IMG/VR virus record: IMGVR_UViG_3300012952_003952
Location: 64,001 to 128,000 of that record
Reading direction: 5' to 3' (one strand)
Length of the DNA: 64,000 bases
From: a virus
Taxonomy: Duplodnaviria; Caudoviricetes
Part shown: positions 21,606-60,547 of the stretch, piece by piece
Layout of the letters: every line of letters starts with the position of its first letter
How positions within the stretch are numbered: position 1 is the stretch's first letter
Notes under the pieces: model-generated
Seen by the model: only the letters and a program-made list of their open reading frames with translations
Databases searched by the model: none
Told to the model about the DNA's origin: nothing
Program-made: the position numbers and the translations under genes

Positions 21606-23141
21606 ATGTATTTAATTTTAACAGCTAGCAAAAGCACTTACATCACTAATAAGATCATTGACAACAAATTTAGAGCTACAGATGCGAATGTGGGAAAAGC
21701 TGGAACATTAGATCTTTTTAAACTTTACAATGAATCTACACTTACTGGATCAACAGATCCAATTGAGCTATCTAGAATTCTTTTAAAGTTCAATCTAGAT
21801 TCTCTTCAAAATTTAACTGCATCTAATATAGACATAGGCTCTAGCACTTTTAGAGCAAGATTAAAACTTTTCGATGTCTACGCAGGTCAAGGTGTTCCTA
21901 AAAATTTTAAAGCAGTAGTGTACCCGCTTTCAAGATCTTTCGATGAGGGTGTAGGTAGAGACGTATCAGCTTTTCAAGATATAGATGTTGCTAATTTTAT
22001 TACTTCTTCTTACTCAAACTCTACAGCAAATGCTTGGTTTGTTTCAGGAGCAAATCGAGGTGGTCTATTAAATTCGAATGACATAGACTATATTTCTTCT
22101 GGAAGCTTAGGCTCAGGCGTAGTAGATTTTGGAAAAGTTCAGCTTTTTAAAGAGGGAAATGAAGATTTAGATATTGATATAACAAGTATTATTTCTGGAA
22201 CTTTGGCAGGAAGTATTCCGAATCGAGGATTGCGTATATCTTTTAGTGGATCTCAAGAAACAGATACAAAGACGAGATTTGTCAAGCGGTTTGGCTCGAG
22301 GCATGTCTCCGATCCATTTAAAGCCCCACAGCTTCATATTAGCTATGACGATAGTATAATAGATCACCACGAAGATTTTATTTTTGACGTGAGTGGATCT
22401 CTATTTTTAAACAATTTCCATCGTGGAACTCCAGCAAACATTTTATCTGGTGCTGCAGCTTCAGAGTTATCTGGAAACAATTGCATTATGCTAAGATTAG
22501 AAAAGCAAGACTTGTCTCTTTATTTTACTGGATCTCAGCACACTGAAGGAACGGACTCTACCGGCGCAAAAGGCTTATATTCGGCTTCTTTTGCGGTTTC
22601 TTTAAACAATACTTCTAAAGTTAATAAAACTCAAAAACTTTTAGATTTAGCATATAAGAGCGGCTCAGTAACCTTTGATGAGTATTGGACGTCAGTAGAT
22701 GGTAACGTTGGCTACCATACAGGAAGCGTAGAAATAAAGCTTCCGTATAGGACTTCGTACAATTATTCACCTGCCGATCTGTATTTTCACTTTATGAATA
22801 TGGAGCCAAAGTACGACAAATTAGATGTTACTCGAATCAACGTTTTTGTTAGGAATTTTGAAACTAAAGATAAAGCTAGCAAACTTCCATATGAAAGAAA
22901 AAGTATAATTTTATCGAAAGTTTATTACAGAATAAGAAATTTAGACACTGGAACTATAGTTGTTCCTTTTGAATCGGCAACTGGAGGAACAAAGCTTTCG
23001 GCAAATAGTTCGGGATTAAGCTTTGAACTACGTTGTGAGTCACTTCCTCCCGGTCATATTTATACTATAGATTTATTAGTAAAAGATTTTGACCAACACA
23101 GAATATACGAATCTGCAAGTCCAAAATTTAAGGTTAGCTAA
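21606..23141 (+). CDS. Virion structural protein (baseplate region)
   Basis: 511-aa Ser/Thr/Gly-rich ORF directly after gp6-like, with a beta-rich pattern (RLKLFDV...VYPLSRSFDEGVG). Confidence 0.7.
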   Translation: MYLILTASKSTYITNKIIDNKFRATDANVGKAGTLDLFKLYNESTLTGSTDPIELSRILLKFNLDSLQNLTASNIDIGSSTFRARLKLFDVYAGQGVPKNFKAVVYPLSRSFDEGVGRDVSAFQDIDVANFITSSYSNSTANAWFVSGANRGGLLNSNDIDYISSGSLGSGVVDFGKVQLFKEGNEDLDIDITSIISGTLAGSIPNRGLRISFSGSQETDTKTRFVKRFGSRHVSDPFKAPQLHISYDDSIIDHHEDFIFDVSGSLFLNNFHRGTPANILSGAAASELSGNNCIMLRLEKQDLSLYFTGSQHTEGTDSTGAKGLYSASFAVSLNNTSKVNKTQKLLDLAYKSGSVTFDEYWTSVDGNVGYHTGSVEIKLPYRTSYNYSPADLYFHFMNMEPKYDKLDVTRINVFVRNFETKDKASKLPYERKSIILSKVYYRIRNLDTGTIVVPFESATGGTKLSANSSGLSFELRCESLPPGHIYTIDLLVKDFDQHRIYESASPKFKVS

Positions 23142-26100
23142 TGGCAAAACGCCCGACCAGCTTTTATACTAAAGGCGGATTATTTTCCCCGCGATTAGTA
23201 ACAAAAATCGCTCAAGAAGATCCTACGATTTTATCCCAAGATACAACTGCGCTTTCTGGATCTTTGATAGGCGGAAATTCTTGGAAGTTTGACGGCCCGG
23301 GCGCTCCATTTAAAAGCACGCAGCAAATACCAATTGACTGGTCTCAATTTTTAAACCATACTTTTTTTAATTCTGCAGAGTCTAAAGTAAACGTAACATT
23401 TGACACAATAATCAACTATTTTCCTTTTGATGGAAATACAGCTCAAACTGATAAATTCTTAGAAAATCTTACTGGATTTGAGAAGTGGGTATATGATAAA
23501 TGGCCAAAACACCTTGGCTGGTTATTTTTCTCGGGCTCTGCAGGTCACGCTTCTTCCGATGTGGGCAGCTATATTAAAGTCAAAGACGTTGCTGGCGTTT
23601 TATATCCATCGCTCTCTAAAAGAAAAGATGCAGCCACAGTTTTAGACCCTAAGTCAAAAAGTTTTTCTTTGGAATTTTATATTCATGTACCCAAAGAAGC
23701 CAATGGCCGTCAAGTAATCTTTCAAAAAAAGGGCGACTCAGGTGGCAATTGGGCTGGCGGGTTTACTATCGGACTTTTACCCGCGGGCGCAGTACAACGC
23801 CCAGCTATTAAGTTTTTAGTATCTAGTGGCACAACAGTTCAGAGCTGTATAATGCCTATAAGACGTGGCGGATTCCGACACATCGCATGTGTGTTTGATC
23901 GTCAAACAACTTCATTCCCGCAACTAAAAATGTATCTATCTGGAAAATTGATGGCTACTTCATCTATTATTGCTAGCATTGGTCCATTTGCGGGTGGGGC
24001 GCAAGATTTATTAATAGGTTCCGGTTCACACCATATCAATTTCCAGCCGGCAGAAACATTTTCAGGCTCTATAGACGAGTTTAAGTTTTATCACGGACTA
24101 AGGACAGAGTATACGATTATGACACAAATGTCGGCATCTGCTCAGCCTTCTCCAAAATTAAAACTTTATTTTAAATTCAATGAAGGCACTGGATCTTATC
24201 CTAATAATAATGTTTGCTTAGATTCTTCCGGCAACTCTCTTCATTCTAGAATAGAAAATTTTTCTAAATACGCCACAGCTACATCTAATTTAAGAGATTT
24301 ACGGAATTTAAAACACCCGATAATTTATGAAGATCGATCTTTGAGTCCAGTGTTATTTCCTGCTCAACCAGACGTTGTAGCTTTAAACACTGATCTAATG
24401 GGCTCAGCCAGTTTATACGACGCTAACAACCCCAACTTAATAACTAAGCTGATACCCCAGCATTATTTAGTAGAAGCTTCTGCCGCCGAGGGATATGATG
24501 ATGAGTATGCGGGAAGAGGAGATGCTTTTTCTTACGTTAAAGATTTCCCTGGCGGCGGTAAAATGGGGTCACCTCAAATTATAGCAAGTGTTCTTTTTTC
24601 TTGGGCTAAATTTTTTGATGAGATGAAAATTTATTTAGACCAATTCGGCGATCTCTTAAAAATGGATTATGATAGCGAGGGAACTGTTTCAGACCAAATG
24701 CTTATGTTTTTTGCCAATTACTATGGATTTGATTTGCCTACAAACTTTGCAAATTCTGATATAGCTCAATTTCATTTTGGTAAAAATTTAAACTATGAAC
24801 CATCTTTATCTTCTACTACTTTAAGAGTAATCCAAAACCAAGTATGGAGAAGGATCTTAGTAAATATACAGCACATTATTAGGTCTAAAGGAACCATTCA
24901 TGGAGTGAAAGCTCTGCTAAGAGCAGCTGGTATAAACCCAGAAAATAATTTTAGATTTAGAGAATTTGGAGGATCTAGAACTATAACAACGGCAGACTCT
25001 AGAAGAAAACTAACGCAAGTTTCTAAAATGATTAGTATGACTGGTTCTCTTTCTACTTTTCGATCTCCGTTCTTAAGTGGTTCTAGAGTAGAGGTCGGCT
25101 GGCCAACCCCTCAAGGCACATTTGTTCAAAAAGATAAATTTTCTCCTCACGGTATATCAAATGCAGCTTCAGATGGACTTTTTACTACAGCTTCTTGGAC
25201 TTATGAAGGAATATATTCTTTTGGAAACTTAGTGCAAGATACGCCACCAACTCAAAGCTTAGTAAGAATGTATGTGAGCGGAACTCATGCTTCTACGTCT
25301 AAAGGAGCGTGTATATTAAACGTTGTTGCTTGCGGTACAGGAAGCGGAATTTACGAATCTGGATCCGTTAATCTTTTTGTGAGATCTGGCATATCCGATA
25401 CCGCCTCTACTTTAGAATTAAAGATTAACGGCGCAAATATCTTTGATGGAGATAAGTGGCATCTAGCTGTAGGAAGAGATATTGGTACCTCTACTGGTTC
25501 ATATGCATCTGCTTCTTACTTTTTAAGAGTTGGAAAACAGAATGGTGGCAACATAACAGAATACCACACTACACAGTCTTACTTTGAAGCTGCCGTGCCA
25601 ACTCAAGATGTATTCAGTACTATATCAGACCATTATAACTTTTCTGGAAGTTACTTTGTAGTAGGGTCTTCTTCTTTTTATGGTACTTCTGGAAACAAAT
25701 TTTTAGATTCAACATCAAAAGTAACAAATGCCCTAGCCAGAATAGGAAAAACTGCTGGGCATGTTGCGCAAGTAAGATTTTGGACTTTAGCTTTGAGCCA
25801 CGAAGAAACCAAAGAACACATTAGAAACTTTAAATCTTTAGGCGTAAAAGACCCTCTAACTAATTTTAGTTTTACTAATGATGTAACAGGAGCATTTGAA
25901 AAACTTAGGATAAATGCTGCTCTAGATCAGCAAGTCACTAAGTCAGACGCTTTTGGGAAAATAGCACTCTTTGACTACAGCCAAAACAACCACCATCTTT
26001 CTGGAACTATGTTCCAAGCTTCGAAAAGAGTGATAAACCCAGAACACTTTAGTTATTCTATATTAGACCCTAAGTGGGATGAGAGATCAGCAGAAAATAA

Positions 26101-26629
26101 AATAAGAGTAGCTGGATTTTTAAAGGATTCAAATATACAAGAGTTTAATACTTTGAAAGCTCCAGTAAGAAAAGTTAATCCATCAATCGCGCAATACGAC
26201 GACACTAGATTTAGTATAGAGGTTTCTGCAGTGAGAGCCCTTAATGAAGATATTGTTTTGTTACTTTCTTCTTTAGATTGGTTTAATAACGCTATAGGAG
26301 CTCCAGAGCTCCAGTTTGCAGAAAGTTATCCCGAGCTAGAAAAATTAAGAAGAGTGTATTTTAATAGACTAGATGGAAAACTTAATTTTAAGCAGTTGTT
26401 TGAATTTTTTAAATGGTTTGATGATTCTCTTTCCCTATTGGTTGAAAGGCTTATTCCAAGGCACACTAATTTCTTAGGAATAAACTTTGTTATTGAACCT
26501 CATATGCTAGAAAGAGCAAAGCACAATTATGCTTCTCAAGCTTCTATTTATCTTGGTGAAAATGATAGAAGAGGTTTAGATACTGAACTGCTTCTTAGAC
26601 AAATAGTTATCACGTTGAGGAAATTCTAA
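23141..26629 (+). CDS. Baseplate wedge gp7/P2 gpI-like protein carrying two LamG/concanavalin-like domains
   Basis: IWRRILVNIQHIIRSKGTIHGVKALLRAAGINP is gp7/gpI-like. LamG patterns: FSLEFYI...RHIACVFD...FSGSIDEFKFY and DKWHLAVGR...VAQVRFW. Confidence 0.7.
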   Translation: MAKRPTSFYTKGGLFSPRLVTKIAQEDPTILSQDTTALSGSLIGGNSWKFDGPGAPFKSTQQIPIDWSQFLNHTFFNSAESKVNVTFDTIINYFPFDGNTAQTDKFLENLTGFEKWVYDKWPKHLGWLFFSGSAGHASSDVGSYIKVKDVAGVLYPSLSKRKDAATVLDPKSKSFSLEFYIHVPKEANGRQVIFQKKGDSGGNWAGGFTIGLLPAGAVQRPAIKFLVSSGTTVQSCIMPIRRGGFRHIACVFDRQTTSFPQLKMYLSGKLMATSSIIASIGPFAGGAQDLLIGSGSHHINFQPAETFSGSIDEFKFYHGLRTEYTIMTQMSASAQPSPKLKLYFKFNEGTGSYPNNNVCLDSSGNSLHSRIENFSKYATATSNLRDLRNLKHPIIYEDRSLSPVLFPAQPDVVALNTDLMGSASLYDANNPNLITKLIPQHYLVEASAAEGYDDEYAGRGDAFSYVKDFPGGGKMGSPQIIASVLFSWAKFFDEMKIYLDQFGDLLKMDYDSEGTVSDQMLMFFANYYGFDLPTNFANSDIAQFHFGKNLNYEPSLSSTTLRVIQNQVWRRILVNIQHIIRSKGTIHGVKALLRAAGINPENNFRFREFGGSRTITTADSRRKLTQVSKMISMTGSLSTFRSPFLSGSRVEVGWPTPQGTFVQKDKFSPHGISNAASDGLFTTASWTYEGIYSFGNLVQDTPPTQSLVRMYVSGTHASTSKGACILNVVACGTGSGIYESGSVNLFVRSGISDTASTLELKINGANIFDGDKWHLAVGRDIGTSTGSYASASYFLRVGKQNGGNITEYHTTQSYFEAAVPTQDVFSTISDHYNFSGSYFVVGSSSFYGTSGNKFLDSTSKVTNALARIGKTAGHVAQVRFWTLALSHEETKEHIRNFKSLGVKDPLTNFSFTNDVTGAFEKLRINAALDQQVTKSDAFGKIALFDYSQNNHHLSGTMFQASKRVINPEHFSYSILDPKWDERSAENKIRVAGFLKDSNIQEFNTLKAPVRKVNPSIAQYDDTRFSIEVSAVRALNEDIVLLLSSLDWFNNAIGAPELQFAESYPELEKLRRVYFNRLDGKLNFKQLFEFFKWFDDSLSLLVERLIPRHTNFLGINFVIEPHMLERAKHNYASQASIYLGENDRRGLDTELLLRQIVITLRKF

Positions 26630-29400
26630 TGCCAAGTTCTGTTTATCCTCCGATGTCAGCTTCATACAGCTACATACAGGGGCACAACGTTAAGAATTAC
26701 GAAATATTTTCTCAGCGCTTGATTGGAGTGTTAGGAAGAAGCGATAGATCTAAAATGGTGTCAATGACGTCTCACAAGTACGTTACTCCGTTCGGCACCG
26801 ATGTAACTGGTTCTAAAATAATAAACCAAACATCTGATTCTTATTTTGACGATTCTTTATATCAGCAAGGTGGAGTAACTGTATTCGAGGGCTTGGGCAC
26901 TCAACAGTTTGCAGTTGCGACGATAACAATCTTATCAGGTGCCGCTTGGCAATCTGATGGATATGTAGACATTAGATTATATGACACTAACGTGTCTGGC
27001 TCCTGGACAGAAGGTTATATAAGCGCTTACGGAACAGGGCCCCAAGACTTAACAGCGATGACCGGATCTACAGTTGATTGGGATACACAATTAATTGCAG
27101 ATTCTGATGGAGCTGGATTTGCCGGAGGAATGAGGTTTTGGGGACTTAGAGAAGTCAGTACGTCCATAGATTCAGACCCTAGATTTAATCCATATTTTTA
27201 CTTAACTGGAAGTGTACTTCGCCGAGAAGATTTAACTAGTGGAACAGAATATGAAAAAACCGCAGTAATAGCAGCGCACCAAAATATTACTGGCTCGAGA
27301 ATTATAGCGTTAAACTTATATCAAAAAATTAGCCGGTCTTTAAATGACCCCTTATCTCCATTTCATACGCTTCCTCTTCATGTTAGCCTAAGTGGAGTAA
27401 GTGCTTCTTCAGACCCTTCTACACAGTATCTAGGGAGCACTATTACGCTTTCGGTTTCTAAAGAAGGAAAAGAAACAGACCCATCTCTTAACTCCGGCCT
27501 TTCGCCATGGTTAACCGGCTCTATGATGCGGTTTAACATAGGCGTTACTTCCAGTTACGCTCCATATAATATCCAAGTTTCATCTGCTCCAGCTGGATAC
27601 AAGACATTAAGTTTTTCTTCTAATATCGGTTTACCATCTTGGTCTGAATCTAGCGGTTCTTTGAAGATGCTGCCACAATACAATTTAGAAAGAAACAATT
27701 TTGGCTATTCAGAATCTCAAACGTTCACACCTTTCGTCGACAAGACTACTCTTTTAGGGTTTGGAGCTAGCACAAGTGGAAAAGATAATCTTCATCTTGA
27801 CCTGCAAGAATATGTTCCATACTATCGTTCAGTAGTAGACCCAGTCACTGGAGAGACGACTACTGAACCTTGGACCATCACTGATCGATGGCGCGGCCTG
27901 GATGGAGATCCTCATATCTCCCACCGGCCTGTTTTAGCCCGCATGGCTGGTTTTGCATCTGCTCCGCCTAACCCCGGAGCCGCGGTGACAGGCTTCAGCC
28001 GCAGAACAAGGGTTATGACAGGGTCTGCAAATCCTTTTCACCTCGGATTATTTTATACAGTTAATCAATTTATTTCTGGGGCTGAAATAAATTATGGAAC
28101 TAAAGACAAGCCAAAATACAAATACACTGAGGGTTTAAGGTGGATCGATGGTGATTATGACATTGAAAATCTTGACGGAATAAGCTATGGACAGGCGACT
28201 CAGTTTGACATGAATGGAGTTATAGAGCCTTTAGATATTAGAAAAGAAATAACTGGAGACCATTTATGTATAGGCGATTTTTACGATCCAATACATAATA
28301 CACTCAAGGGGACTCTTAGTTCTACCGATAGAGTTTTAAATCATCTTGGAATAACGCAACCTATTGGCGAAACTTATAATATTGTAAAAGATACTAAAAT
28401 CACTCCATTTGAATACATTGATAATGGCGCAGACATATATGGTTTACATCTTACCGTACCTCCACTAGCAGTTCAAACTCCAAAAACTATAGAGTGGACT
28501 TTTAATCGCAAGTTTGATTTGAGGGAAGCTAGCGTCTCTGGTGATATTTCAGATGAAGATTTGGAAACTATTTCACGAGACTATGATTGGGTTGAAACGA
28601 TGACATCAAACCCGCCAAGATTTGTCTTGCAAGAAGGAAAACATAATACTCCGACCGGATATGAATATACCAATCTCGGCTACATGAGACCGCTTTCATT
28701 GGAAGACTTCAACGACTATGAAGATCCATATGCTTTCGGATTTTTTCCAGTGGGCACAAGCTACTCTTTCAAAGCCGATTCTGGACTAGTCGATCCAGAG
28801 GTTATAGCTTGGCACGCTAAACAAGCAATAAATAGTTCGAGCCTCGGCCAATATTTAACAGCTTCTCTTGGCTCGCAATATAGAAGTTCTAATACCGTTT
28901 ATATTACACCAGTCACAGCTTCTAGTGGTTGGAATGATAACATACACTTGAGGAACCCTGCAGATGATCTCTTTGGGTTTGATAAATGGGCTTTTACTGA
29001 AAAAGCAAGAAGTAAATCCATTGGAGGGTCTTTTCTAGACTATTCTCCATATCTAAACTTAGATGACCTTTCAGCTAATCCAGACCCCTTTTATGAAACA
29101 GAGTCTAATTCAGAGTATTTAGAAACGCTAACAAGATCTACTGATAAAGAGCTTCAATATGTTATAGCTGCAAAGCGTGAACTCTATAACTCTGTAAAAA
29201 TATTTCAAGCTTCCGGTTACGATAGTGCCACACCTTGGGATTGCACTTACTTCCTCGGCACAGTTTATTTTCGTAATGAACGTATTTTTGATGATCCAAA
29301 ACCATTTTCAAGTCATGAAAAATCAACTCCAAAAGGAATTGTTTATGAAAACACAATTTTTGGATATGATTCAGTAGTATATGGAGGTTACAAAAAATGA
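26629..29400 (+). CDS. Large virion structural protein, function unknown
   Basis: 923-aa ORF translationally coupled on both sides, rich in S/T-G-S. Confidence 0.7.
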   Translation: MPSSVYPPMSASYSYIQGHNVKNYEIFSQRLIGVLGRSDRSKMVSMTSHKYVTPFGTDVTGSKIINQTSDSYFDDSLYQQGGVTVFEGLGTQQFAVATITILSGAAWQSDGYVDIRLYDTNVSGSWTEGYISAYGTGPQDLTAMTGSTVDWDTQLIADSDGAGFAGGMRFWGLREVSTSIDSDPRFNPYFYLTGSVLRREDLTSGTEYEKTAVIAAHQNITGSRIIALNLYQKISRSLNDPLSPFHTLPLHVSLSGVSASSDPSTQYLGSTITLSVSKEGKETDPSLNSGLSPWLTGSMMRFNIGVTSSYAPYNIQVSSAPAGYKTLSFSSNIGLPSWSESSGSLKMLPQYNLERNNFGYSESQTFTPFVDKTTLLGFGASTSGKDNLHLDLQEYVPYYRSVVDPVTGETTTEPWTITDRWRGLDGDPHISHRPVLARMAGFASAPPNPGAAVTGFSRRTRVMTGSANPFHLGLFYTVNQFISGAEINYGTKDKPKYKYTEGLRWIDGDYDIENLDGISYGQATQFDMNGVIEPLDIRKEITGDHLCIGDFYDPIHNTLKGTLSSTDRVLNHLGITQPIGETYNIVKDTKITPFEYIDNGADIYGLHLTVPPLAVQTPKTIEWTFNRKFDLREASVSGDISDEDLETISRDYDWVETMTSNPPRFVLQEGKHNTPTGYEYTNLGYMRPLSLEDFNDYEDPYAFGFFPVGTSYSFKADSGLVDPEVIAWHAKQAINSSSLGQYLTASLGSQYRSSNTVYITPVTASSGWNDNIHLRNPADDLFGFDKWAFTEKARSKSIGGSFLDYSPYLNLDDLSANPDPFYETESNSEYLETLTRSTDKELQYVIAAKRELYNSVKIFQASGYDSATPWDCTYFLGTVYFRNERIFDDPKPFSSHEKSTPKGIVYENTIFGYDSVVYGGYKK

Positions 29401-32400
29401 AAAGAGATTTTAGAACCTCGGAAGTTCCAGACTTAAATGAAAACTTCAGAAACTACAATAGCGGAACTAGTCTTTTAGCTTATTATAAATTTTCTCAATA
29501 TGATACTACCACTAATCAAGTGGCAGACTTTTGCAAAGATACCAGCATAGATCCCCTAACATACGAATCGACTGTCTTGTCGCACGCAAAATTAGTAGAA
29601 TCTAATCCATACCAAGGCAGAGCTGACCTAAAGTCGGTATCTTTAAGAAAGGCTCAAAAGCAGTGTTTTAGACTTCCATACGTTACCCTTTCAGAAAGGA
29701 TTGCTTCTAACCAAATACCAATCACCATCGCGGGTTGGGCTCAAATGCCAGACATCTCTGGAGACGGCGACGCAAATCTCGGGATACTCACATCTATTGC
29801 TGCTGGCACAGTTTTTAATACTACTAATGGAAACTTTAAATTTGTGTATGCGCCAGCTACTAAAAAATTCGAATTTGGTCTAGTTTTAACTACTTCTTCT
29901 GCTGGCGTATCTACTATTATCGTTCCGACAGTGTCAATCTTTGATATATCTAAACCTGTTTCGTCTGGCGATTGGTTTCATTTCGCTATTAGGGTAAAAA
30001 GTACGATTGCTACTACTGACGCAACTGGTGCAGATATTGGCGACATTATTTCTATATTCATAAATGGAGAAAATGTTACAGATGCCCCTAGCTGTACCGG
30101 CGGAGATTCGGGAGGAGGCACTAAATTTGCTGGTGCAAATTCATTTATATTAAAATCTACCGATGTTATCGTAGGAAAAGGACCTTCAGACACGACTGCG
30201 GTTGCACAATTTTCTACAATAAACTTTCATGAACTGGCATTTTGGACCTCGGCTTTAGCAGAAGGTGAAATATTATCTCTATATGAAGCTGCAAAAATGT
30301 TTGCAGGTAGTGGTGTTTTAAGCTTACCACCAAAAGTTCAAATAGACAATAGAGAAAACAATACAGTAGTTAATCCAATAGTTTTAGCCAACGTAGACAA
30401 TCTTAATAATGTTACTACCGCTTCTTTTTTTGATGATACGACAGTAAGATTATTCGATTCAACTTCCATAAATTATTCTGCAGGTATACCAAGACACAGT
30501 CGGCTAATTACTGCTTCGGTAGCTTCTCCTAGCCAAGAACCAGATATTTATTTAAACTCAGGATTAAGAGTTCCGAACTCACCTTACGGATGCCCTTCTG
30601 GGTCTTATGTTTTTGGAAATGCTACTATAAATACAGCAGACAGCGAAGCGTTATCTGTCGATTCTACTTATCCTGGAGTTGGAACTCAATATACAGGCGA
30701 TCGCCCATTTACTCAGCAGAGGTACGGAAAAGGTTATAGTTGGGATATTAAAGAATCTCCAGCCCCCTTTCATCCGTTTAATGACACCGAAGTTTTGGAT
30801 GATAGATTTTCTATTTGGAAAGAAGATTCTCTTATTGGGCCCTCATTTGATGTAAACAGAGATAGCCAACACTACTTAGATTATAAATTAGATTTGCCTA
30901 CTACTTCTTCACGTCGAGGCCGGTCTATAATACCGATAACGCTTAAAAATAGTACTATTTTAGATGCTACTAGATACGACGTTTTAAATCAACAAGACCC
31001 CCAAGGGCCTACCGATGCTAGTAATACAGGATTCTATTATTGGAACTGGAAATCAAAACGCTGGAATCAAAAAGGTAATACTATCGAAGATGGTACGACT
31101 GGAGTCTATCACTTCAGGCTTCTCGCTGAAAGATATTATAGGTGGGACTGGAGCACCGGTTCAGCTAGTGTCTTCGGCTATGGTTTCTTCGATTGTCCTT
31201 CCACTCCAAGAAAGCTTGTAGTTTCTTATTCAGACGGAACATCATATTTAGCAGGCCAAACAGGAGGCCAGCAAAGCTATAGAAAATGTTCTCCTGCTTT
31301 TGCTGGATTTGAATCAATTCCCAGGCAGTTTTATCCAGGGCCAAAAGAAACAAATGGTCTTTTTAGAACTTCTTCTTTAATACTAACAGCCAGCTATCCA
31401 GCTTTCCTCACGTCTTCCTTATATGCTGGCCAGCCAATGATGCAATATGGGGCTCCGCAAAACACTACTTATTTTGCTAAAGAGGCGGAAAGACTTAAAC
31501 TCAGCAATTATATTCAAGCCCCCTTTATTTTAGAAAAAGCAATCCTAACTCTCACGGTTGAAGGTAGAAGAACTTATTCTAATAGAGACAGGTTTCCTGC
31601 CAATAGCTACCCTCAAGATGACTACGTATTTTTCCTATACCGACAAGCAACTGTTGGAAACGATATAAAGCAGCAATTGTCTTCTAGCGATCGTTATCTT
31701 ATATGCAGTGGAAATGTTGCAGTATACGCAGAAGATTGTTGGGATTCAGACTCCAGCGGAAGTATAGCGGGAGGAGGAATATTAGGAGTTAAATATAGCG
31801 ATAAATTTGGTCATCTATTTAAACCGGTAAACTCGCCCGCAGTTTCTTTAAAATTGCTTACCGAGGTGACAGGCGGGATCTTTGATCCTGGGAGTCTTAA
31901 AAATTCCAACAGGAACCGGCCATATCCAGCTAGTCACACGGAAGATCGAGCAGCCTTTGAAGTCACCACTGGACAAAAATCTGTAGAAGTTGTAATGACT
32001 CCTGCGCTATGCCCTAAGCGGAGATATGGACAATTCTGGGAGCACACACAAGTACAACATGTCGTTTCTGGAAACTGGTATTATTTATCTGCTTGGGGAG
32101 CTCTATCTTTAAGGCCACCCATCGCGGGTGTAGGCACAGGTGGAAACCTCAATATCATTGGATACGTTACACGTGAAGATGTAAGGTATCCTCCATACAC
32201 CAACCAGAAGAACGGCGCGGCCGTTATTGGGCTACCTACTCAGAATAAATCTTTCTGGTCTGATGACTGGGAATTCATGAATAGAGAGATACTCTATGCT
32301 TCAGCTTGCTTTAGTGCTCGTAATCCCGATATGGATATTATGACTCCTTCAACCGATATATCTGAATCTTTAAACTATGGATATTTTGGTAGCACTACGG

Positions 32401-34790
32401 AAGCTAGATCAACAGATGGAAAAGCGGCTATCATTAATATAGCCTCTGTCCCTCCAGACTACAACCGCGGAACCCCAGTGTTTTGTTCTTGGCTTGGAGG
32501 AACTACGTATGTTGCTTCGCCTCTAAATAAAGAAGCTATAAAACCTCAGTTTAGAGGCGGCTATAGAATTAGATCTAGCTCCAATGATAGAAGGCAGTGG
32601 TATGGACAGAGATTGCCTCCAAAACCAAAAAACTTTAATATTTCTCCAGAGCCAGAAACTTTTATGACGCCTTTAGGCGCAGTGTGGGAAACAGGATCTA
32701 TATGGGCCCAGCATCGCCAAAACTACGGTGGTGAACCATGGTCTTCTATGCCCCCTGTAACTCCGACCACTTTCTTGGAAATTAATCAAATAAACGAAGA
32801 AGCTACTAAAAACTTTTTAGCTGCAGAAAAACTAGATCCTCGAACTAGAAATATAGGAACTCGATATTCTAGCTATGTTCAACAGGGTTCTGCTTCTTAC
32901 TTTAATATAACATCTTCGGTCAACCAGATCACAGGCTCGAATCCAGGCTGGAGGCAACAATTAATATGGAACGGAACACGCAACGTATTTGATTCACCTA
33001 CTCAAGCAGGGCAGAGAAAGACAGGATATTTGCTTCTGCCTGGAGATGATCTAATATTAGGTTTAGATGCAGCGTTAGCGGCTCCAAAAGGGCAAGTTTC
33101 AGGAAGCGTTACATGCCTTACCGGTTCGTATTTAAGGCTCTCTCGAAGAGAGTTTAAATTAACTCTAGTTGGATCTTATGTAAAAGACAACAGGCGAATT
33201 GCGATAAGTTCTGACCAGCAGCTTCTCAATGCGAACGCTTCACTAGCTATAGGCACAGACAGAGTGACAGATCAGTTCTTGGTAGGAACCCGAACTGATT
33301 ACCAAGGGTCTTATCTATCAAAGCATATGACTGGCTCTATGATGCGGTGGATATCCAATAAGCCACTTAACCCTGACTTAGAATCAGACCCTCTGTGGAC
33401 AGGCAGAAATCTTGTTGATTACGTAGCTCCTACTGCAGGAGACTATAGACAATTTAGAAGAATTTTTTCTAGTGAATTAAGTAAATCTCTTGGAGACACC
33501 GCATCGTTCCAAAGGTTTACTAGCTGTTATGATTCAGGATCAGTCTATTATGACAGCTTAGTACCGCTCCCGCAAGAACTATATAAGCCTTTCGATCTTA
33601 CCGAATTTAATGAAAAGGGTAACTACGAAGGTGGCACTCTGCCAGGAAGTGGAGACTACGGTTATCGAGGCCCCGATGGTCGTATAGTGACAAAAAATGC
33701 CGTAGCTGGATTTGGGCTATCTTCCCGCCATGATTTAAAAAATCTTTGGAACCCAGATTCAGTGGGCCAACCAAACAATGCAGGCAATGTCGTCGATGCT
33801 TACAATGAAAATTGGTATCGTTCTTTTCCATATGAATCTAAATACACCAGAAAGAGAAAAGCAGCCGATGGATCTATAGTTGTAGTTCATCCGCTGAGGC
33901 AACCTACTCCAAACATGGAATCTAAGACGGCTGTGCTCTCCAGCGGGTCTTCTACCGACATCAATGTGCGCAGGTTACCTCTTGCAAAAGGAAGAATATT
34001 TTTAGCTGGAGATATTGGAAGTAGCATTGATGGTAACGTGGGTTATGCTGCAAATAATTGGCGTACATGGAGAAAAGCTGGATTGCTGGTAGCTGCTCCT
34101 AAGATTTTAGTAGGAAGCGTTGTGCCTTCGTGGTCTACTGGGGCGGGTGGTACCAATATCAACCCCTTCTTCACCGCATACGCTCCAGAAGCGCAGCATT
34201 CTTGGTTCCGTAGCACAGATGTTGGCATGCACTTAAGGTATCAATATGGATACGTTAACTGTAATGATTTCTTTGGCTTAACTACATATTCTACCTCGTC
34301 CGGAGTTCCGTTGAGAACGTCGCTCGAATACGCAACAGGCCTCTCTTATGATCGAATTGGAATGACTGGAGAAGTTGGTTTCTATCCGATGTTCGTGGCT
34401 AGTCGTAAACCATCCGGGTGGAAATATGGAGTAATGAACCCAGTCCCAATCGGTCCGTCAGCCAAGTTTCGACCTGATCGCTTCGGCCAATTTAGAGACA
34501 TGCTTGAACAAAGGTTAGACGCTGTTATTTATGATACGCAGACTGAAGTTTTAGTTGAAGACAGTTATCCTGTCGTTTCTGCTTTTAGAGACCCAGCATG
34601 GGCAAACCCAACAGATTGGGTACCTAGAGCCGCTGAGGCAACTCGCAGTTCTAATTTAAGCATATATTCTACAAGTTCTCTTCCTTACTTCGATGATCCG
34701 CAAGGGTCTGTATATCCAGACGGAAGAAACAGAAGCGGTCCAATCGATGATGAAGCTGAGGAATACGTTGTTGTTGTAGCAGACGAATAA
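29397..34790 (+). CDS. Very large virion protein with an N-terminal LamG-like domain (possible receptor-binding or baseplate appendage)
   Basis: 1797 aa. LLAYYKF...ITIAGWAQ...WFHFAIRV...IFINGE...FHELAFWTSAL is a LamG pattern. Confidence 0.7.
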   Translation: MKRDFRTSEVPDLNENFRNYNSGTSLLAYYKFSQYDTTTNQVADFCKDTSIDPLTYESTVLSHAKLVESNPYQGRADLKSVSLRKAQKQCFRLPYVTLSERIASNQIPITIAGWAQMPDISGDGDANLGILTSIAAGTVFNTTNGNFKFVYAPATKKFEFGLVLTTSSAGVSTIIVPTVSIFDISKPVSSGDWFHFAIRVKSTIATTDATGADIGDIISIFINGENVTDAPSCTGGDSGGGTKFAGANSFILKSTDVIVGKGPSDTTAVAQFSTINFHELAFWTSALAEGEILSLYEAAKMFAGSGVLSLPPKVQIDNRENNTVVNPIVLANVDNLNNVTTASFFDDTTVRLFDSTSINYSAGIPRHSRLITASVASPSQEPDIYLNSGLRVPNSPYGCPSGSYVFGNATINTADSEALSVDSTYPGVGTQYTGDRPFTQQRYGKGYSWDIKESPAPFHPFNDTEVLDDRFSIWKEDSLIGPSFDVNRDSQHYLDYKLDLPTTSSRRGRSIIPITLKNSTILDATRYDVLNQQDPQGPTDASNTGFYYWNWKSKRWNQKGNTIEDGTTGVYHFRLLAERYYRWDWSTGSASVFGYGFFDCPSTPRKLVVSYSDGTSYLAGQTGGQQSYRKCSPAFAGFESIPRQFYPGPKETNGLFRTSSLILTASYPAFLTSSLYAGQPMMQYGAPQNTTYFAKEAERLKLSNYIQAPFILEKAILTLTVEGRRTYSNRDRFPANSYPQDDYVFFLYRQATVGNDIKQQLSSSDRYLICSGNVAVYAEDCWDSDSSGSIAGGGILGVKYSDKFGHLFKPVNSPAVSLKLLTEVTGGIFDPGSLKNSNRNRPYPASHTEDRAAFEVTTGQKSVEVVMTPALCPKRRYGQFWEHTQVQHVVSGNWYYLSAWGALSLRPPIAGVGTGGNLNIIGYVTREDVRYPPYTNQKNGAAVIGLPTQNKSFWSDDWEFMNREILYASACFSARNPDMDIMTPSTDISESLNYGYFGSTTEARSTDGKAAIINIASVPPDYNRGTPVFCSWLGGTTYVASPLNKEAIKPQFRGGYRIRSSSNDRRQWYGQRLPPKPKNFNISPEPETFMTPLGAVWETGSIWAQHRQNYGGEPWSSMPPVTPTTFLEINQINEEATKNFLAAEKLDPRTRNIGTRYSSYVQQGSASYFNITSSVNQITGSNPGWRQQLIWNGTRNVFDSPTQAGQRKTGYLLLPGDDLILGLDAALAAPKGQVSGSVTCLTGSYLRLSRREFKLTLVGSYVKDNRRIAISSDQQLLNANASLAIGTDRVTDQFLVGTRTDYQGSYLSKHMTGSMMRWISNKPLNPDLESDPLWTGRNLVDYVAPTAGDYRQFRRIFSSELSKSLGDTASFQRFTSCYDSGSVYYDSLVPLPQELYKPFDLTEFNEKGNYEGGTLPGSGDYGYRGPDGRIVTKNAVAGFGLSSRHDLKNLWNPDSVGQPNNAGNVVDAYNENWYRSFPYESKYTRKRKAADGSIVVVHPLRQPTPNMESKTAVLSSGSSTDINVRRLPLAKGRIFLAGDIGSSIDGNVGYAANNWRTWRKAGLLVAAPKILVGSVVPSWSTGAGGTNINPFFTAYAPEAQHSWFRSTDVGMHLRYQYGYVNCNDFFGLTTYSTSSGVPLRTSLEYATGLSYDRIGMTGEVGFYPMFVASRKPSGWKYGVMNPVPIGPSAKFRPDRFGQFRDMLEQRLDAVIYDTQTEVLVEDSYPVVSAFRDPAWANPTDWVPRAAEATRSSNLSIYSTSSLPYFDDPQGSVYPDGRNRSGPIDDEAEEYVVVVADE

Positions 34791-34877
34791 ATAATATTTT
34801 TAAAATTTGGCTCTAATTTTTTAACCTATGGTATCAAAACACTTACAAAACAGCCTAATTAGTTCAAGAGTGAAAAG

Positions 34878-37800
34878 ATGGCCATAAAGAAATCTACAAA
34901 AAAATCTTCGCTTAAAACTACAGACTTTTTAAAAATAAAAGAGGGTAGGTCTGGTGCTATAAGTAAAATTGTTGCGCCGCATGATTTTCAAGTTGGAGTA
35001 GGTTCCGATTCATATAGGTCTTCTCTTACTTCTACCGGTATCATAGTAGCACAAAGAGGTTTCTCAGGCTCTCTCACTAGATTAGAAGATGGAAATCCAT
35101 ATCTACATGCTGGTTCTAATATTGCTTTGGCAACAGGTTCCGATGGATCTATTACAATTGCAGCTTCTGGATTTTCTAACAATCCCCTAACAGCTACAGT
35201 CGCCGGTGGTTTATTCTTTGACGCTGGAACCACTTACGATGGATCAGCATCAAAAACATTGGCTATAGATATATACCAAAACAGAGGCTTAAGTATTCAT
35301 CCTACTGCTGGTTTGAGGATCGATTTCACTTCAGCTTCTTCAGTGGCGCCTGCAACGTCTGATCGTGTTTTAATTGGCGACGCTGGATCTTCTTATAATG
35401 CGAAATATTGCACCATAAACGATATATTGAGTCTAGGTTCAGCTGGAACTCTAGCTAATGCAATAACTTTAGGCAACGGAATAGAAGATTCGGCTGGTGG
35501 AGTTAGCAGCTATAATAACACCGCAGCTATTACTTTAGCTGTGACTGTTTCTGCATCTTCTGGTTTGGGTGTTACATCAGATGGAGTGAGGATATCTCCA
35601 TCTACTTTACCCCTTGCTACAGTAGCCACAGGAGACAAAGTTTTAATTGGAGATGTCTCTGATAGCGATAATGTAAAGTATGTTACAGCTCAATCAATAG
35701 CAAACTTAGCTACTGTTGGAACACTTTCTAACGCTCTAACTGCCGGTAATGGCTTACAGCTAAACTCTGGCGCTACATTTGATGGCTCTGCAGCCAAGAC
35801 TATATCTGCAAAAGCAGCAGACGCAACAATTTCTGTCGGAGGTTCTGGAATAAGTGTTTTAAAAGTTCCAAACAACCTCACAAGTTCACGGGGAATTTCT
35901 AGCTTTACTTATGATGGATCATCATCTGGTGTCGGAATTCAAGTAGCCATAGATGCAAATGGAGGCCTCGGTTTCGATGCTGCTGACGCGCTGTCTTTAG
36001 AAATTTCAAATCTTCCAAGCGCAGATATAACCATCAACGACTATATTCCATTTTATGATGCGAGTGGAGGAACCACCGCAGTATCAAAAACTACTGCTAA
36101 CCAATTAAGAACTTTAATATCAGGAGATATTACTTCTGTTACTGCTGGAACTGGATTAACAGGTGGTGGATCAACTGGAGACTTGACGTTAGCTATAAAC
36201 AATAATGTAGTAGCCACTATTTCTGGATCCACTTTTACAGGTGGAGTCAAATTTGATACTGGCCTTACTGGTTCTCTTACTAAATTACCAGACGGTACAT
36301 CATTTTTAAGAGCCGGTTCTAACGTATCTTTAAATACCGGGTCTAAAGGTGAGATTACGATTAGCGCTGTAGCTGGCGGCGGCGGTGTCGCAGATGGAAA
36401 CGCTAAATATCTAGTCCTAGCAGCCACAAGCTCTCTTAGCGAAGAAAGAGTTTTCTCTATGGGTACCGGCCTATCGGCTTCTGATGGCGGAGCTGGAAAT
36501 AATTACACAGTTTCGGTAAGAGACTCAATTTTTGCTTCCCTGACAGGCTCTCAGTTCTCTGGCAATGTTGGAGTAACTGGATCTATAGGATCTACGTCTT
36601 TAGTGACCTCTCCAGCTTTCTCTGGGTCTTTAACGCACCTTCAAGATGGCACTTCTTTTATAAAGGCTGGAAACAATATTCAGGTAGCCACAAGTTCCAA
36701 CGGAGGCATAACCATCACCGGCACTGTTCCTGCAGCCACGACATTTTTCAGCAGTCCAGCAAATGGTTATATTGTGACTACTGGGTCTACTAGTTTTGCT
36801 GGATCTCACGGAGCATCTTACCCTACAACTAATGTAGGAACTGATGCATTTTTCTTTGTCAGCGGCACTATAGGTTCTGCTAATTCTTCTACTGCTGGAA
36901 CTGCAGTCTTTAGCGGAGATGTTGTAGTTTCCGGCACAATGTACGGTACTGGAACCATTGGTCCAGCAGAAGATGGAGTCTATACAGACGGGCTCTTTAC
37001 AGATTTTATTTCGTCAACGCCGATTGGAACTGCGATAGATAGAATAAATGAGGTGCTTTTAGGCGTTGCCCCATCTGCAGCTCCAGCTTTAGATGATATG
37101 GGGTGTGGAAACACTGGAACAACCGCAGTTCTTTCTTTTGGTTCATCTCAGTCTATTTCCGGCTATACGAACGTTCAACCTTCTACTCTCAGCAGTCCAA
37201 GCAACACCCTTTCTAACATAGATATTAATGGAACTTATAGCTCTACTACTTCTAATAACAATATTAGGGCAGCAGCTTTCGCAGGTTCGACAACCATAGA
37301 AGGAGTCTTAAACTTAGATGTTTCTGCTGATGGCACTAATTATCCAAATTACGCTTTTGGAAATGGCGACTCTGGAACCCTTTATCTCTACGTAAACAAT
37401 AATTCTACCGCTATTCACTCTACATCTTTAGGTTCTTTTGCGTCTGGAAATTCATTAAACACGAGTGGAAGCGGATTTATCAGTCTAGGCGCTGCAACTA
37501 CAGGCTCTTTTTCAGACGGTAGCGCTTTTACAATATTTCAACACCGTACTGGTTCTTTTAGAGTAAGTACAAACGATCAAAGAAATGGTTGGAATTATGC
37601 TAGAGTAACTCACGTTGTGGGGAGCACGACTAACACCTGCAACTATGTCAGCTGGGTCAATGACTCTGATTCTAACGCTCTAAGCTCAGACAACTCAGCT
37701 TTCGATAGTCTTTCAATGACTGGGCTAGCTAGTCTATCAGGCGTAAAATATAACACTGCAGGCTCAGCACAATATAGGCTTAGAGTTTTAAATGCTTATA

Positions 37801-38729: not shown

Positions 38730-38738
38730 GGAGGGAAA

Positions 38739-42788: not shown

Positions 42789-42834
42789 ACTTTGGAGAGT
42801 AAAATAATATTTTTTATATGATTTTGGAGTAAAA

Positions 42835-43359: not shown

Positions 43360-43376
43360 TCCAATAAGGGACCAAA

Positions 43377-47773: not shown

Positions 47774-47778
47774 AAAAA

Positions 47779-55700: not shown

Positions 55701-55797
55701 ACTTGACAAACTTTAAACGAAGTATTCTCTTGTTTATTGGGGACCAATATATTTATTTGATGATCATTATTACTATAATTAGAACAATGGAGAAAAA

Positions 55798-56508: not shown

Positions 56509-56565
56509 TGATTGCTTTTTGATATAAAGATGCTTTTTTAAAAGAGTTAACGGAGAAATTATTAA

Positions 56566-57960: not shown

Positions 57961-57973
57961 GCGATGGATTTAA

Positions 57974-60547
57974 ATGTCGATTATAGCATTAAACGAAAAA
58001 AACTTTGATGTCGTAACGCTACAGATGCACCCGAAGAGAACATTCTCTTCATCTTCTAGTGGCCTTACAGGCTCAGTGTTTGTGTATGCGCAAAGATCGA
58101 CTAGTATAAAAGACCAGGCTCTTCCTTCTGGATCTCTAACAGGATCAAATGGAGTTTTTTCAGACGAAAATATTACCACCCGCCAGATGAACACTTGGTA
58201 TGTTGCAGCCGAAGCGGAAAATAGAACCCAAGAAGGACTAAGGTATCCTAACGGAACCGATTTCACCCCGTCTACTGGAAACTCTAAACTTTTCCCATCT
58301 GCATCAGTACCATGGTCAGTATCAAGCGGATCTTTATCAGCAAGCTTTGTCACTTATTTAGACAGTGTATCTAATCTGGTAAAGTCGCCAAATTTAAAAA
58401 AGCAAGTAGAGATATTCCGGTTTCGCCCTGCTACAGTATTCAACTCTAACACAGTTAGAAAATCGATAGTGATAAACACGTTATCTGACTTTTATAGAAC
58501 CTCTATGCCAAATTCAGATTTTGGTTTTACGAACTATAATTCAATTAACTTTTTTACCGCATCTTCAGTTTCTCCAAATAGAGCGTTAATATATCCATCA
58601 CCAAGCCTTAGAGCAGTTCCCACTTCTGGAACTTTCGCTATCACCGGATCTTTTAACATAAGCTTTTATATAAATCCAAGATATACTACACCTAACCCTT
58701 ACGAAGACTTTAAAGCTGGTGTCATTGCGCATATGAGTTCATGCTACGCAGTATCTCTTCACACTGGGTCAGGAGTAAATCAGTATGGATATCCAAGCAC
58801 TTTTAGAATAGCGCTACAATTATCTCAATCTGCTGATACAAGACCTTCAGAGATCAATCTCAACATACTTAACAATAAGCGATCTTACCCGCAGGATATG
58901 ATTTTTGTGTCAGATGAACATTCTTTAACACATAAACATTGGCATCACGTATCTATAAATTTGGGCCTGGCTACTGTAGGAAAGGTTTCTAGGACTTGGG
59001 GAGGTACCGGCTCATTTTATATAGATGGAACAAAGCAGAAAAAATCTGATTTTATAGTCGCTTCAGAGTCAATAAACACACGCCACTTTCACGATTTTAA
59101 TCCCTTGTTTATAGGAAATTATTACGACGGGACAAATCAGGGAGCTTCATCTGTAAGAGCATTTTTTAATGCGACAGCTGCGAGTAAAGAAGGAGTAGAA
59201 AACTGGGGTCCAGGACACACTGAAGATCCTGCTTCTGCTCTTTTAAATCACCCGCTTAATGCAGAATTTCACGACTTTAGAATCTATGAAAGGCAACTTA
59301 CAACCAATGAGATAATAACTGCTTCTATTCAAGGTCCAACGCAAGAGCAATTTCAGAAAATTATTAAAATGTATTTGCCTCCCTTTTTCACCACAGGGAG
59401 CACAGCCCGGACCGTAATCAACACACCTTTCCAAGCTAAGAAACAATTTACGACTAAACCTTTTAATTCTTTTTTATCTTTTGATGTTGATGGAAGAGAC
59501 ATAAGTTTACAAAATTTCGTGAGAGAACATAGGCATAAAGTTTTTCCAAGGCTCTTTCACCTAACTAGTTCTGAAATATCTGACACAACTAAGAGTTGGC
59601 AAACTGCGAATAGGCTTCTTTATGAGTTTGGGGTCCAATCTTCATATGTCCGAGCGCGCAACTTAACTATTTTACCGTGCGACAACGGACTCTTTCGGCC
59701 AAACTTTAATTTATTGCTGACGCAGTCTGATCCATTCGGGCTTAAAGATATGACTCCAGAAACGAAAGCAGTTTCAGGAACTTTTGTATATCCTTATAGG
59801 AATGACCGTGGTATTATTGACCTCTCTTTAGTCACTTTAAGAGATATGCATGTGATGCCCACGTATATGACAGGAGTAATGCAAGAGTCTGGCCATGGAA
59901 CTACTTTTGCCGACGATGGCGAGCCAAGATATGTAGTGCAACTTACAGAGTCTAACGGCTGGACAAAAAACGCAACTCCCCAGATACTTCAACTGACTAG
60001 GGACAACACTTCAGACGAAATATGTTTTTTTGATGCTTCCAATTTGTTTTACGGGCAATCTATTAAAAAAGGTTCTTATAGTATACTTGATAAAGCAATT
60101 TCTGGCTCAAACACGAGAGTGTCTATAAGATTAAGAGACGATGGCAGGGGAAATATTTTCCGTTCTGACTGCTCAACTCCACCAGCAACTTGGAATTCAG
60201 TAGGAAATATTTACTACGACGAAGGAATAGTTTTGGTTAAAGCTCCAACCATTCCATTTTTTGGAAAAGATCAATTTGAAGTGGAGCTAGAAGGATTCCA
60301 AAACGTTCATATGCAAGAGATAAATGTTAATGCATATACAGGAAGAATTAACTCTTCTTCTAATTCGTCTTTCCGACCAATGCGACCAGACAATTATGCA
60401 AATTCAGTAGATGGAAACTTTGTGGCTATTAGTGAAATATTATTTCACGATGATAATCTTAATATTGTTGCTCGAGCTAAACTTGCACAACCGGTTGTAA
60501 AAAGATTAACAGATAAATACCTTTTTAGAGTAAAGATGGATTATTGA
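57974..60547 (+). CDS. Virion protein with a LamG-like domain and the same C-terminal motif as 56566..57960
   Basis: FNISFYINP...WHHVSINL...SFYIDG...FHDFRIYERQL is LamG-like. C-terminal ISEILFHDDNLNIVARAKLAQPVVK...FRVKMDY. Confidence 0.7.
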   Translation: MSIIALNEKNFDVVTLQMHPKRTFSSSSSGLTGSVFVYAQRSTSIKDQALPSGSLTGSNGVFSDENITTRQMNTWYVAAEAENRTQEGLRYPNGTDFTPSTGNSKLFPSASVPWSVSSGSLSASFVTYLDSVSNLVKSPNLKKQVEIFRFRPATVFNSNTVRKSIVINTLSDFYRTSMPNSDFGFTNYNSINFFTASSVSPNRALIYPSPSLRAVPTSGTFAITGSFNISFYINPRYTTPNPYEDFKAGVIAHMSSCYAVSLHTGSGVNQYGYPSTFRIALQLSQSADTRPSEINLNILNNKRSYPQDMIFVSDEHSLTHKHWHHVSINLGLATVGKVSRTWGGTGSFYIDGTKQKKSDFIVASESINTRHFHDFNPLFIGNYYDGTNQGASSVRAFFNATAASKEGVENWGPGHTEDPASALLNHPLNAEFHDFRIYERQLTTNEIITASIQGPTQEQFQKIIKMYLPPFFTTGSTARTVINTPFQAKKQFTTKPFNSFLSFDVDGRDISLQNFVREHRHKVFPRLFHLTSSEISDTTKSWQTANRLLYEFGVQSSYVRARNLTILPCDNGLFRPNFNLLLTQSDPFGLKDMTPETKAVSGTFVYPYRNDRGIIDLSLVTLRDMHVMPTYMTGVMQESGHGTTFADDGEPRYVVQLTESNGWTKNATPQILQLTRDNTSDEICFFDASNLFYGQSIKKGSYSILDKAISGSNTRVSIRLRDDGRGNIFRSDCSTPPATWNSVGNIYYDEGIVLVKAPTIPFFGKDQFEVELEGFQNVHMQEINVNAYTGRINSSSNSSFRPMRPDNYANSVDGNFVAISEILFHDDNLNIVARAKLAQPVVKRLTDKYLFRVKMDY

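Follow-up and report, generated by a model that had tools for sequence, protein, structure and literature searches.

In Gram-positive adhesins, GtfA/GtfB glycosylate serine-rich repeat proteins and SdgA/SdgB glycosylate Ser-Asp repeats. The bacterial autotransporter heptosyltransferases TibC and Aah, which are GT9-like, modify TibA and AIDA-I, with one cognate substrate built of 19-residue repeats, and recognise a short strand-loop-strand motif. The general O-glycosylation system of the Bacteroidota is periplasmic and uses the sequon D-[S/T]-[A/I/L/V/M/T], in which an Asp must precede the acceptor. The O-glycosylation of flagellin with nonulosonic acids by Maf enzymes takes place in the cytoplasm on surface-exposed Ser/Thr residues of a polymerising structural protein; in Aeromonas caviae flagellin the acceptor residues are flanked by apolar residues, and no sequon is known for Maf (PMC11339370, PMC12645811). 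Among tailed phages, mycobacteriophages encode glycosyltransferases (GTs) of their own, and virion glycans on C-terminal extensions of capsid and tail-tube subunits are shown chemically (Freeman et al. 2023, as summarised in PMC12619734). The window analysed here is a stretch of 64,000 nucleotides, bases 64001-128000 of the 241,978-bp single-contig genome (GC 0.39) of an uncultured marine jumbo phage, and it encodes a group of large tail proteins in which the tripeptide [ST][GA]S recurs. As in the mycobacteriophages, a tailed phage carries its own GT genes (a GT2 at 7763 and GT4s at 13111 and 14364) and virion proteins are the proposed targets of a putative cytoplasmic modification. Unlike the mycobacteriophage glycans, the motif is dispersed over outer tail proteins.

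Enrichment was scored for each open reading frame (ORF) as the observed number of [ST][GA]S against the expectation from shuffled sequences and expressed as a z-score (Table 1; proteins are named by their first position in the window). The sequence-only reading of this DNA had given 11, 16, 12, 10 and 13 motifs for the proteins at 21606, 23141, 26629, 38739 and 57974, and the recount was identical. It had also called the motif frequent in the proteins at 29397 and 34878, which holds, with 34878 as a weak case; the scores of 34878 and 38739 are lower because both proteins are rich in Ser, Thr and Gly. Its statement that the motif is absent from the gp6-like and gp25-like proteins, occurs about three times in the large protein at 47779 and is rare in enzymes was likewise borne out, with none in the first two, 3 against 4.9 expected in the 2040-amino acid (aa) protein and 0-2 in the enzymes of the window. 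Over the whole genome (242 kb) there are 252 motifs against 136 expected, about ten proteins holding the excess; three of these lie outside the window, a 1796-aa fibre and two tail-sheath paralogues.

Table 1. Motif-bearing proteins, motif-free controls and sugar genes of the window (motifs are [ST][GA]S, expected numbers from shuffled sequences)
Feature	Position	Strand	Motifs observed / expected (z)	Other properties
511-aa protein	21606..23141	+	11 / 1.46 (8.1)	Directly after gp6-like gene; all-beta, carbohydrate-binding module (CBM)-like and Ig/FN3-like sandwiches
1162-aa protein	23141..26629	+	16 / 2.94 (8.0)	Laminin_G_3 domain
923-aa protein	26629..29400	+	12 / 2.72 (5.9)	
1797-aa protein	29397..34790	+	16 / 4.88 (5.1)	
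1283-aa fibre	34878..38729	+	19 / 12.0 (2.1)	Repeat modules (SGSLTxLxDGxSYL...TGS); weakly above composition
468-aa fibre protein	38739..40145	+	10 / 3.7 (3.4)	Same repeat module as the 34878 fibre
857-aa protein	57974..60547	+	13 / 2.13 (7.7)	LamG/pentraxin-like jelly roll
gp25-like and gp6-like inner baseplate wedge proteins	19254..21598	+	0	Motif-free internal controls
GT4a, GT4-family glycosyltransferase	13111..14367	+		Candidate writer only; PF00534 match; EX7E motif EGFGLATLE; clade core gene
GT4b, second GT4	14364..15521	+		Candidate writer only; PF00534 match; EX7E motif EGYGLPLLE; overlaps GT4a by 4 bp
NeuB-family nonulosonate synthase	3986..4861	+		Part of sugar island; not linked to motif

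The enrichment depends on the order of the residues. When eight enriched proteins were pooled, 119 motifs were found against 29.4 expected (z 16.7), and a first-order Markov model raised the expectation only to 55.8, while five permutations of the residue classes, among them [GA][ST]S and S[ST][GA], reached just 1.1-1.3 times expectation. The genome-wide comparison with shuffles and permutations that the sequence-only reading had proposed therefore confirmed the enrichment. Replacement of the last residue, [ST][GA]T, gave only 1.5 times expectation, D[GA]S was depleted to 0.37 times, and Asn and Asp were depleted at either flank. When all 8000 tripeptides were ranked over every ORF of at least 450 aa, with no choice of proteins based on the motif, TGS (p 1e-12) and SGS (p 1e-10) were the first and second most over-represented, and within the enriched proteins TGS, SGS, SAS and TAS are the top four of the 8000. 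The remaining 67 proteins of at least 300 aa hold 60 motifs against 56.7 expected. Hydrophobic residues occupy position -1 in 64% of the sites and position +3 in 55%, where the background is 31%; Asp is not one of the residues commonly found at -1. The full motif is thus longer than three residues and is Φ-[ST]-[GA]-S-Φ, where Φ is hydrophobic. Since codon usage at all three positions is that of the background and no 9-mer occurs more than 4 times, a motif at the DNA level was rejected and it is the protein that is under selection; bias in composition or dipeptides was rejected as the cause by the shuffles, the permutations and the Markov control. The motif is an order-specific feature selected at the protein level.

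The sites are conserved across large families. More than 1700 matches in public metagenomes place the 21606 protein in a very large family of uncultured aquatic origin, and an alignment of 54 homologues (47-89% identity) showed a mean of 9.7 motifs against 1.6 expected, with 9-10 sites in fixed columns. An alignment of 54 homologues of the 57974 protein (about 40% identity) showed 10.5 against 2.2 expected; in this family four TGS sites are near-invariant and the other sites turn over. At the conserved sites of the families position +2 is Ser and almost never Thr (for example, 53 Ser to 1 Thr, 54 to 0, and 52 to 2), each site keeps its own choice of Ser or Thr at position 0, and Gly is commonest in the middle, followed by Ala and then Ser. 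Comparison of 84 related IMG/VR loci gave observed-to-expected ratios of 6.2 for the orthologues of the 21606 protein, 4.6 for those of the 23141 protein (n=51; mean 15.9 against 3.4) and about 1 for the two GT4s; the orthologues of the 29397 protein (n=8) have a mean of 13.1 against 4.4. The gp6-like and gp25-like proteins are depleted, the former to 0.3 times expectation (84 orthologues; mean 0.4 against 1.2) and the latter to 0.2 times (82 orthologues). This depletion could be avoidance of the motif in buried parts of the baseplate, or it may be a general effect, since the virion proteins of T4 also fall below expectation.

Enrichment is restricted to virion proteins of the tail exterior, namely the sheath (in its outer domains), the periphery of the baseplate and the fibres; in this phage and its relatives these proteins carry the five-residue motif at four to six times the chance frequency. 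The major capsid protein (MCP) is not enriched (2 against 1.7 expected). The two sheath paralogues are encoded in tandem at genome positions 146705-149887 and 149929-153072 (window +82705 and +85929, outside the window); they are about 1050 aa each and 34% identical, and their long variable N-terminal and middle regions hold nearly all of the motifs. Twenty of the 22 sheath motifs lie outside the conserved C-terminal third, the part that aligns with the sheaths of other phages (p about 0.02 by a binomial estimate). The fibres at 34878, 38739 and genome position 37775 have repeats in common, and part of the motif signal in fibres is ordinary repeat structure. The N-terminal domain of the 38739 protein is also found in a fibre cluster (locus L152, 17561-30542) of LR756502, an unrelated 642-kb huge phage with no GT4 match, where [ST][GA]S is at 2-3 times expectation.

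The whole genomes of cultured or named relatives, which share with this phage a gp6-like protein (about 31% identity) and GT4a, were surveyed with the same ORF caller and shuffle test. Flavobacterium phage vB_FspM_immuto (MW353176; hereafter immuto) is enriched, with 178 motifs against 85 expected, as are Microcystis phage Mel-JY01 (PP395634; 174 against 82, 11 enriched proteins) and Rhodothermus phage RM378 (80 against 35, five enriched proteins). The uncultured phage G002 (IMGVR_UViG_3300027782_003601; 176 kb, CheckV 92%, GC 0.31) is the strongest of all, with 376 against 116 expected, 15 proteins above z 3.5 and the same motif flanks, and it has motif columns in common with Mel-JY01 and immuto. 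Eighty diverse metagenomic sheaths are enriched as well (mean 6.9 against 2.1). For many enriched proteins of immuto, Mel-JY01, RM378 and G002, BLAST finds no homologue in the genomes of the others. Together these form a wide clade of distant T4-like phages of Flavobacterium, Microcystis and Rhodothermus with many uncultured aquatic members. The tagged proteins of immuto (host Flavobacterium sp. LMO8) include gp159, gp161, gp168 and the sheath gp229. Among the individual proteins, the immuto "tail spike" gp169 (97614-100775) has runs of TASY, SASF, SGSF and TGSF units with 53 motifs against 12 expected, the immuto hypothetical protein gp214 (135031-136152, 373 aa) has 13 against 1.8 and no homologue in the other genomes compared, and a 2188-aa protein of G002 (133017-139583) has 95.

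On the other hand, LR756508 (484 kb), which is about as related as immuto (MCP 50% identical), has 203 motifs against 147 expected overall, but none of its proteins is enriched. Its sheath carries a single motif where 1.07 are expected, as compared with 7-12 in the sheaths of the relatives, and its orthologue of the gp6-adjacent protein aligns but has other residues at the motif columns; therefore the folds do not need the motif. The genomes are all-or-none, with the motif on all outer tail proteins or on none. Outside the clade, T4 (28 proteins; 15 against 25.5 expected) and Tenacibaculum phage PTm1 (62 against 65) are not enriched, and HTVC008M (NC_020484) and S-PM2 reach 1.4 times overall with one marginal protein each. 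On these counts the motif is not something that T4-like tail proteins carry in general. In T4 and PTm1 no tripeptide at all is strongly over-represented, which shows that not every phage has a private tail motif. HTVC008M has over-represented tripeptides of its own in its ORFs of at least 450 aa (TLT, ITL, FEG and SFE, p about 1e-11), which are probably derived from fibre repeat modules and unrelated to Φ-[ST]-[GA]-S-Φ.

In the window the gp25-like gene at 19254 and the gp6-like gene at 19751 are followed by a run of very large ORFs, for which Pfam and PHROGs gave no match apart from Laminin_G_3 (PF13385) in the 23141 protein (E 6.8e-14). Sequence searches of PHROGs and the PDB found nothing for the tagged proteins, and the 26629 protein has no match in Pfam, PHROGs or the PDB. 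The AlphaFold 2 (AF2) model of the 21606 protein (pLDDT 81.6, pTM 0.81) is a chain of beta-sandwiches with a CBM-like jelly roll and Ig/FN3-like domains as assigned by Foldseek, and that of the 57974 protein (pLDDT 79) contains a LamG/pentraxin-like jelly roll (Foldseek probability 1.00) that is weak by Pfam. A lectin-like beta-jelly-roll domain is therefore present in each of the 21606, 23141 and 57974 proteins. There is no profile homology between the 21606 and 57974 families (hhalign probability 0.3%) and no mutual BLAST similarity among the five non-fibre tagged proteins, so common ancestry is unsupported for them; it does hold for the fibre repeats and for the two sheath paralogues. The earlier description of the folds as unrelated goes too far, since three of the proteins share the jelly-roll class and the fibres share a repeat module. 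As modelled, the motifs of the two proteins fit no single structural context: some are in the middle of a strand and others at its start or end, and loops, a helix cap, the interior of a helix and linkers of low confidence hold motifs as well. Where the motif does lie in a strand, the alternation of hydrophobic, hydroxyl, small, hydroxyl and hydrophobic residues would place both hydroxyls opposite the core, which implies that they face away from it.

We tentatively favour, without holding it to be established, that Φ-[S/T]-[G/A]-S-Φ is a short linear tag kept by protein-level selection on the outer tail proteins and read as a recognition or acceptor sequence by one shared trans-acting factor, rather than a requirement of the folds that carry it. 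The factor would most likely be an enzyme that acts in the cytoplasm on freshly synthesised protein, ahead of tail assembly, and modifies either the near-invariant Ser or the Ser/Thr two positions upstream of it. The simultaneous absence of the motif from the sheath, baseplate and fibres of LR756508 favours a trans-acting reader or writer over a structural role in cis, because loss of a single shared factor would produce the all-or-none pattern. We infer that such a factor exists and that it acts on a hydroxyl group. The argument of the sequence-only reading from a shared motif to a shared modifying enzyme gains from both observations, as the motif is shared by proteins without detectable common ancestry and its genome distribution favours a factor in trans. 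Several points weigh against this reading. The LR756508 contrast is a single evolutionary event, and RM378 is intermediate, with its sheath not among its enriched proteins. A search of the phyletic profiles of this phage's genes for an enzyme that matches the motif pattern found none: the pattern of GT4b fails in G002, and that of the 55798 protein is spoiled by a weak positional homologue in LR756508 (172 aa, E 0.004). G002 itself has no match to PF00534, PF00535, PF13692, PF13641, PF01501 or PF01075. Moreover, hydrophobic flanks and small residues are also what would be expected of a tightly packed contact between beta-strands.

The last point leads to the strongest of the alternatives, an intrinsic structural or assembly element in which an unmodified strand segment of small residues would allow close packing of strands or subunits in the outer tail lattice. 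The motif persists, and is strongest, in G002, where no GT was detected; its sites are conserved in position, about half of them are in or at the edge of beta-strands in the AF2 models, three of the proteins share the jelly-roll class, and the fibres carry the motif inside their repeat modules. However, its secondary-structure contexts are heterogeneous and include disordered linkers, the LR756508 orthologues keep their fold-level alignment although the motif was lost in all proteins together, and nothing comparable is found in the tail proteins of T4, PTm1, S-PM2 or HTVC008M. Strand positions, moreover, generally favour Thr, and for them the strict use of Ser rather than Thr at +2 is unusual. 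On balance we regard packing without modification as rather unlikely, yet as the alternative to be taken most seriously.

The sequence-only reading had gone further than a shared factor and interpreted the motif as the sequon of a glycosylation system encoded in the same window. Its inventory of three GTs and a nonulosonate pathway was found to be correct. The region 164-15521 encodes two short-chain dehydrogenases/reductases, a ferredoxin, a B12-radical-SAM enzyme, NeuB, an epimerase, a methyltransferase, the GT2, a carbamoyltransferase, a UDP-glucose dehydrogenase, a second epimerase, a PD-(D/E)XK nuclease (PDEXK) and the two GT4s, with 164-12174 constituting the sugar island. In 33 of the 33 related loci with enough flanking sequence the baseplate genes are preceded by GT4a and GT4b, which are among the fewer than 30 genes shared, at the level of BLAST, with immuto and Mel-JY01. 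Both GTs keep EX7E, and GT4a homologues are also present in RM378 and LR756508. PDEXK, GT4a and GT4b form a syntenic trio at 12201-15521 of the window, 47964-51883 of immuto and 81375-86302 of Mel-JY01, where GT4a is split into two ORFs (83441-84013 and 84024-84932); of the trio LR756508 has PDEXK and GT4a only, and G002 has none. Elsewhere in Mel-JY01 (635-8430), a 1227-aa protein with a GT4 domain (4747-8430) is encoded immediately behind the two proteins in which that phage has most motifs, of 805 aa with 39 motifs and 508 aa with 14. Two further genomes (G003 and G004) have both enriched sheaths and GT4 matches.

The distribution of these genes does not follow the motif. NeuB is present in this phage and in a close relative and is absent from immuto, Mel-JY01 and RM378, all of which are enriched, and from G002; therefore the nonulosonate pathway is not needed for the motif. 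Conversely, LR756508 lacks the enrichment and has PDEXK, GT4a and the NeuB island. Its lack of both GT4b and the motif is the one remaining fact in favour of a link to the GTs. In G002, phmmer and tblastn found no homologue of any gene of the trio (PDEXK, GT4a, GT4b) or of the sugar island, and the 25 best Pfam families for 52 mid-size ORFs included no GT. The contig carries all of the other 23 core genes of the clade, and within it about 2 kb separates the two genes (an immuto-46506-like gene and p15795) between which the trio is placed in other genomes. The trio is quite likely truly absent from this genome. Whether relatives without the GT cluster also lack the enrichment was a question raised with the sequon proposal, and the answer from G002 is negative, since the most enriched genome has no detectable GT. 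Equal enrichment in relatives devoid of GTs had been named as evidence against the sequon, and G002 is probably such a case, unless its GTs are encoded in the 8% of the genome that is missing. A distant GT4a-like GT in Tetrasphaera phage TJE1, which is not enriched (27 motifs against 19.9 expected), was considered and set aside as uninformative.

The described systems provide partial precedents. Serine O-glycosylating GT4 enzymes are known (GtfA and SdgA/SdgB), and the phage shares with GtfA/GtfB and SdgA/SdgB the GT4 fold with EX7E, two adjacent GT genes and serines in S-x-S-like contexts. Its GT4s nevertheless score far below the cut-offs of the corresponding hidden Markov models (GtfA, TIGR02918, 14.8 and 17.3 bits against 574.6; SdgA, NF047880, 20.6 against 800), both appear catalytically intact, unlike GtfB, and the sites are dispersed instead of forming the long tandem repeats of the adhesin targets. 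As with TibC/Aah, a putative cytoplasmic glycosylation would affect many serines of beta-rich surface proteins, but the motif shows no dependence on an enzyme of that kind, G002 having no PF01075 match. The apolar flanks and the nonulosonate pathway recall the Maf system; however, PF01973 (Maf) has no match in the 242-kb genome and relatives without NeuB keep the motif. The motif resembles the Bacteroidota sequon in its core of three residues, its Ser/Thr acceptor and the small or apolar residue that follows, and some hosts of the clade are Bacteroidota, but position -1 is predominantly hydrophobic, D[GA]S is depleted and the clade also infects cyanobacteria and Rhodothermus. With respect to mycobacteriophages, the differences are that the capsid is not enriched and that motif load among relatives (G002, LR756508) does not follow GT gene content. 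The GT4s could also act on DNA or another substrate. In summary of this proposal, the part that stands is that tail-exterior proteins share a real, order-specific motif and that GTs are encoded in the window; the link of the motif to the glycan genes of the window is not supported. Modification by the window's whole system (GT2, GT4a, GT4b and the nonulosonate pathway), which would be a special case of the reading that we favour, is improbable, and O-glycosylation by GT4a/GT4b, although the only concrete candidate activity, is a weak one and only slightly less doubtful.

A shared partner that is not an enzyme would also give the all-or-none pattern. The motif would then dock an assembly chaperone, or a small decoration or adaptor protein of beta-sandwich fold, and the window offers a candidate at 55798-56508, a 236-aa cohesin/CARDB-like beta-sandwich protein for which phmmer found homologues in immuto, Mel-JY01, G002 and RM378 and none in LR756508 or the outgroups. 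The positional homologue in LR756508 mentioned above leaves this pattern unclean, and it would be unusual for a partner to bind each protein at 10 or more sites in varied contexts; docking is very unlikely. An artefact of composition or low-complexity repeats is more improbable still: although the 34878 fibre reaches only z 2.1 once composition is counted, some relatives do contain true low-complexity runs (TASY/SASF in immuto gp169, SGT repeats in Mel-JY01) and the LR756502 fibres are enriched with no GT4 at all, it is contradicted by the shuffles, permutations and Markov control and is refuted for the non-repetitive proteins at 21606, 23141, 26629, 29397 and 57974, whose dispersed single sites are kept across families.

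In its most specific form, the tag reading would amount to a putative modification code of the whole clade, in which a phage enzyme O-modifies the invariant Ser at 10 or more sites of each outward-facing tail protein and so provides the tail with a coat that the capsid lacks, the enzyme being GT4b/GT4a or, in phages like G002, an unrecognised analogue. We consider this version unlikely as it stands; if it were true, no sequon for a virion modification would have been defined in tailed phages before this one. We found no earlier account of a linear motif by which the exterior tail proteins of an entire phage clade are marked, nor any paper that describes this motif or virion modification or glycans in immuto, Mel-JY01 or RM378. 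The clade is large, as judged from the metagenomic homologues of the 21606 protein, and its hosts belong to three bacterial phyla. As a modification site the motif would be a predictive sequon with a bearing on adsorption, stability, stickiness to marine polymers and antibody recognition, and as a packing element it would be a new rule of tail architecture. Since two cultured phages, immuto and Mel-JY01, carry it, the question is directly testable. The case is also a warning that co-located glycan islands should not be read by default as systems for virion glycosylation.

Two observations concern other genes of these phages. A 1142-aa protein of the virion region of the window (44345-47773), which is not enriched in the motif, has at its N-terminus a pretoxin-HINT-like domain whose match to PF07591 (E 3e-5) does not reach the cut-off. 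G002 encodes two Mom-family proteins, a RimK-like ATP-grasp enzyme, a radical-SAM/SPASM protein and a ferredoxin-dependent bilin reductase (loci L258-L266), the last of which suggests that it is a cyanophage.

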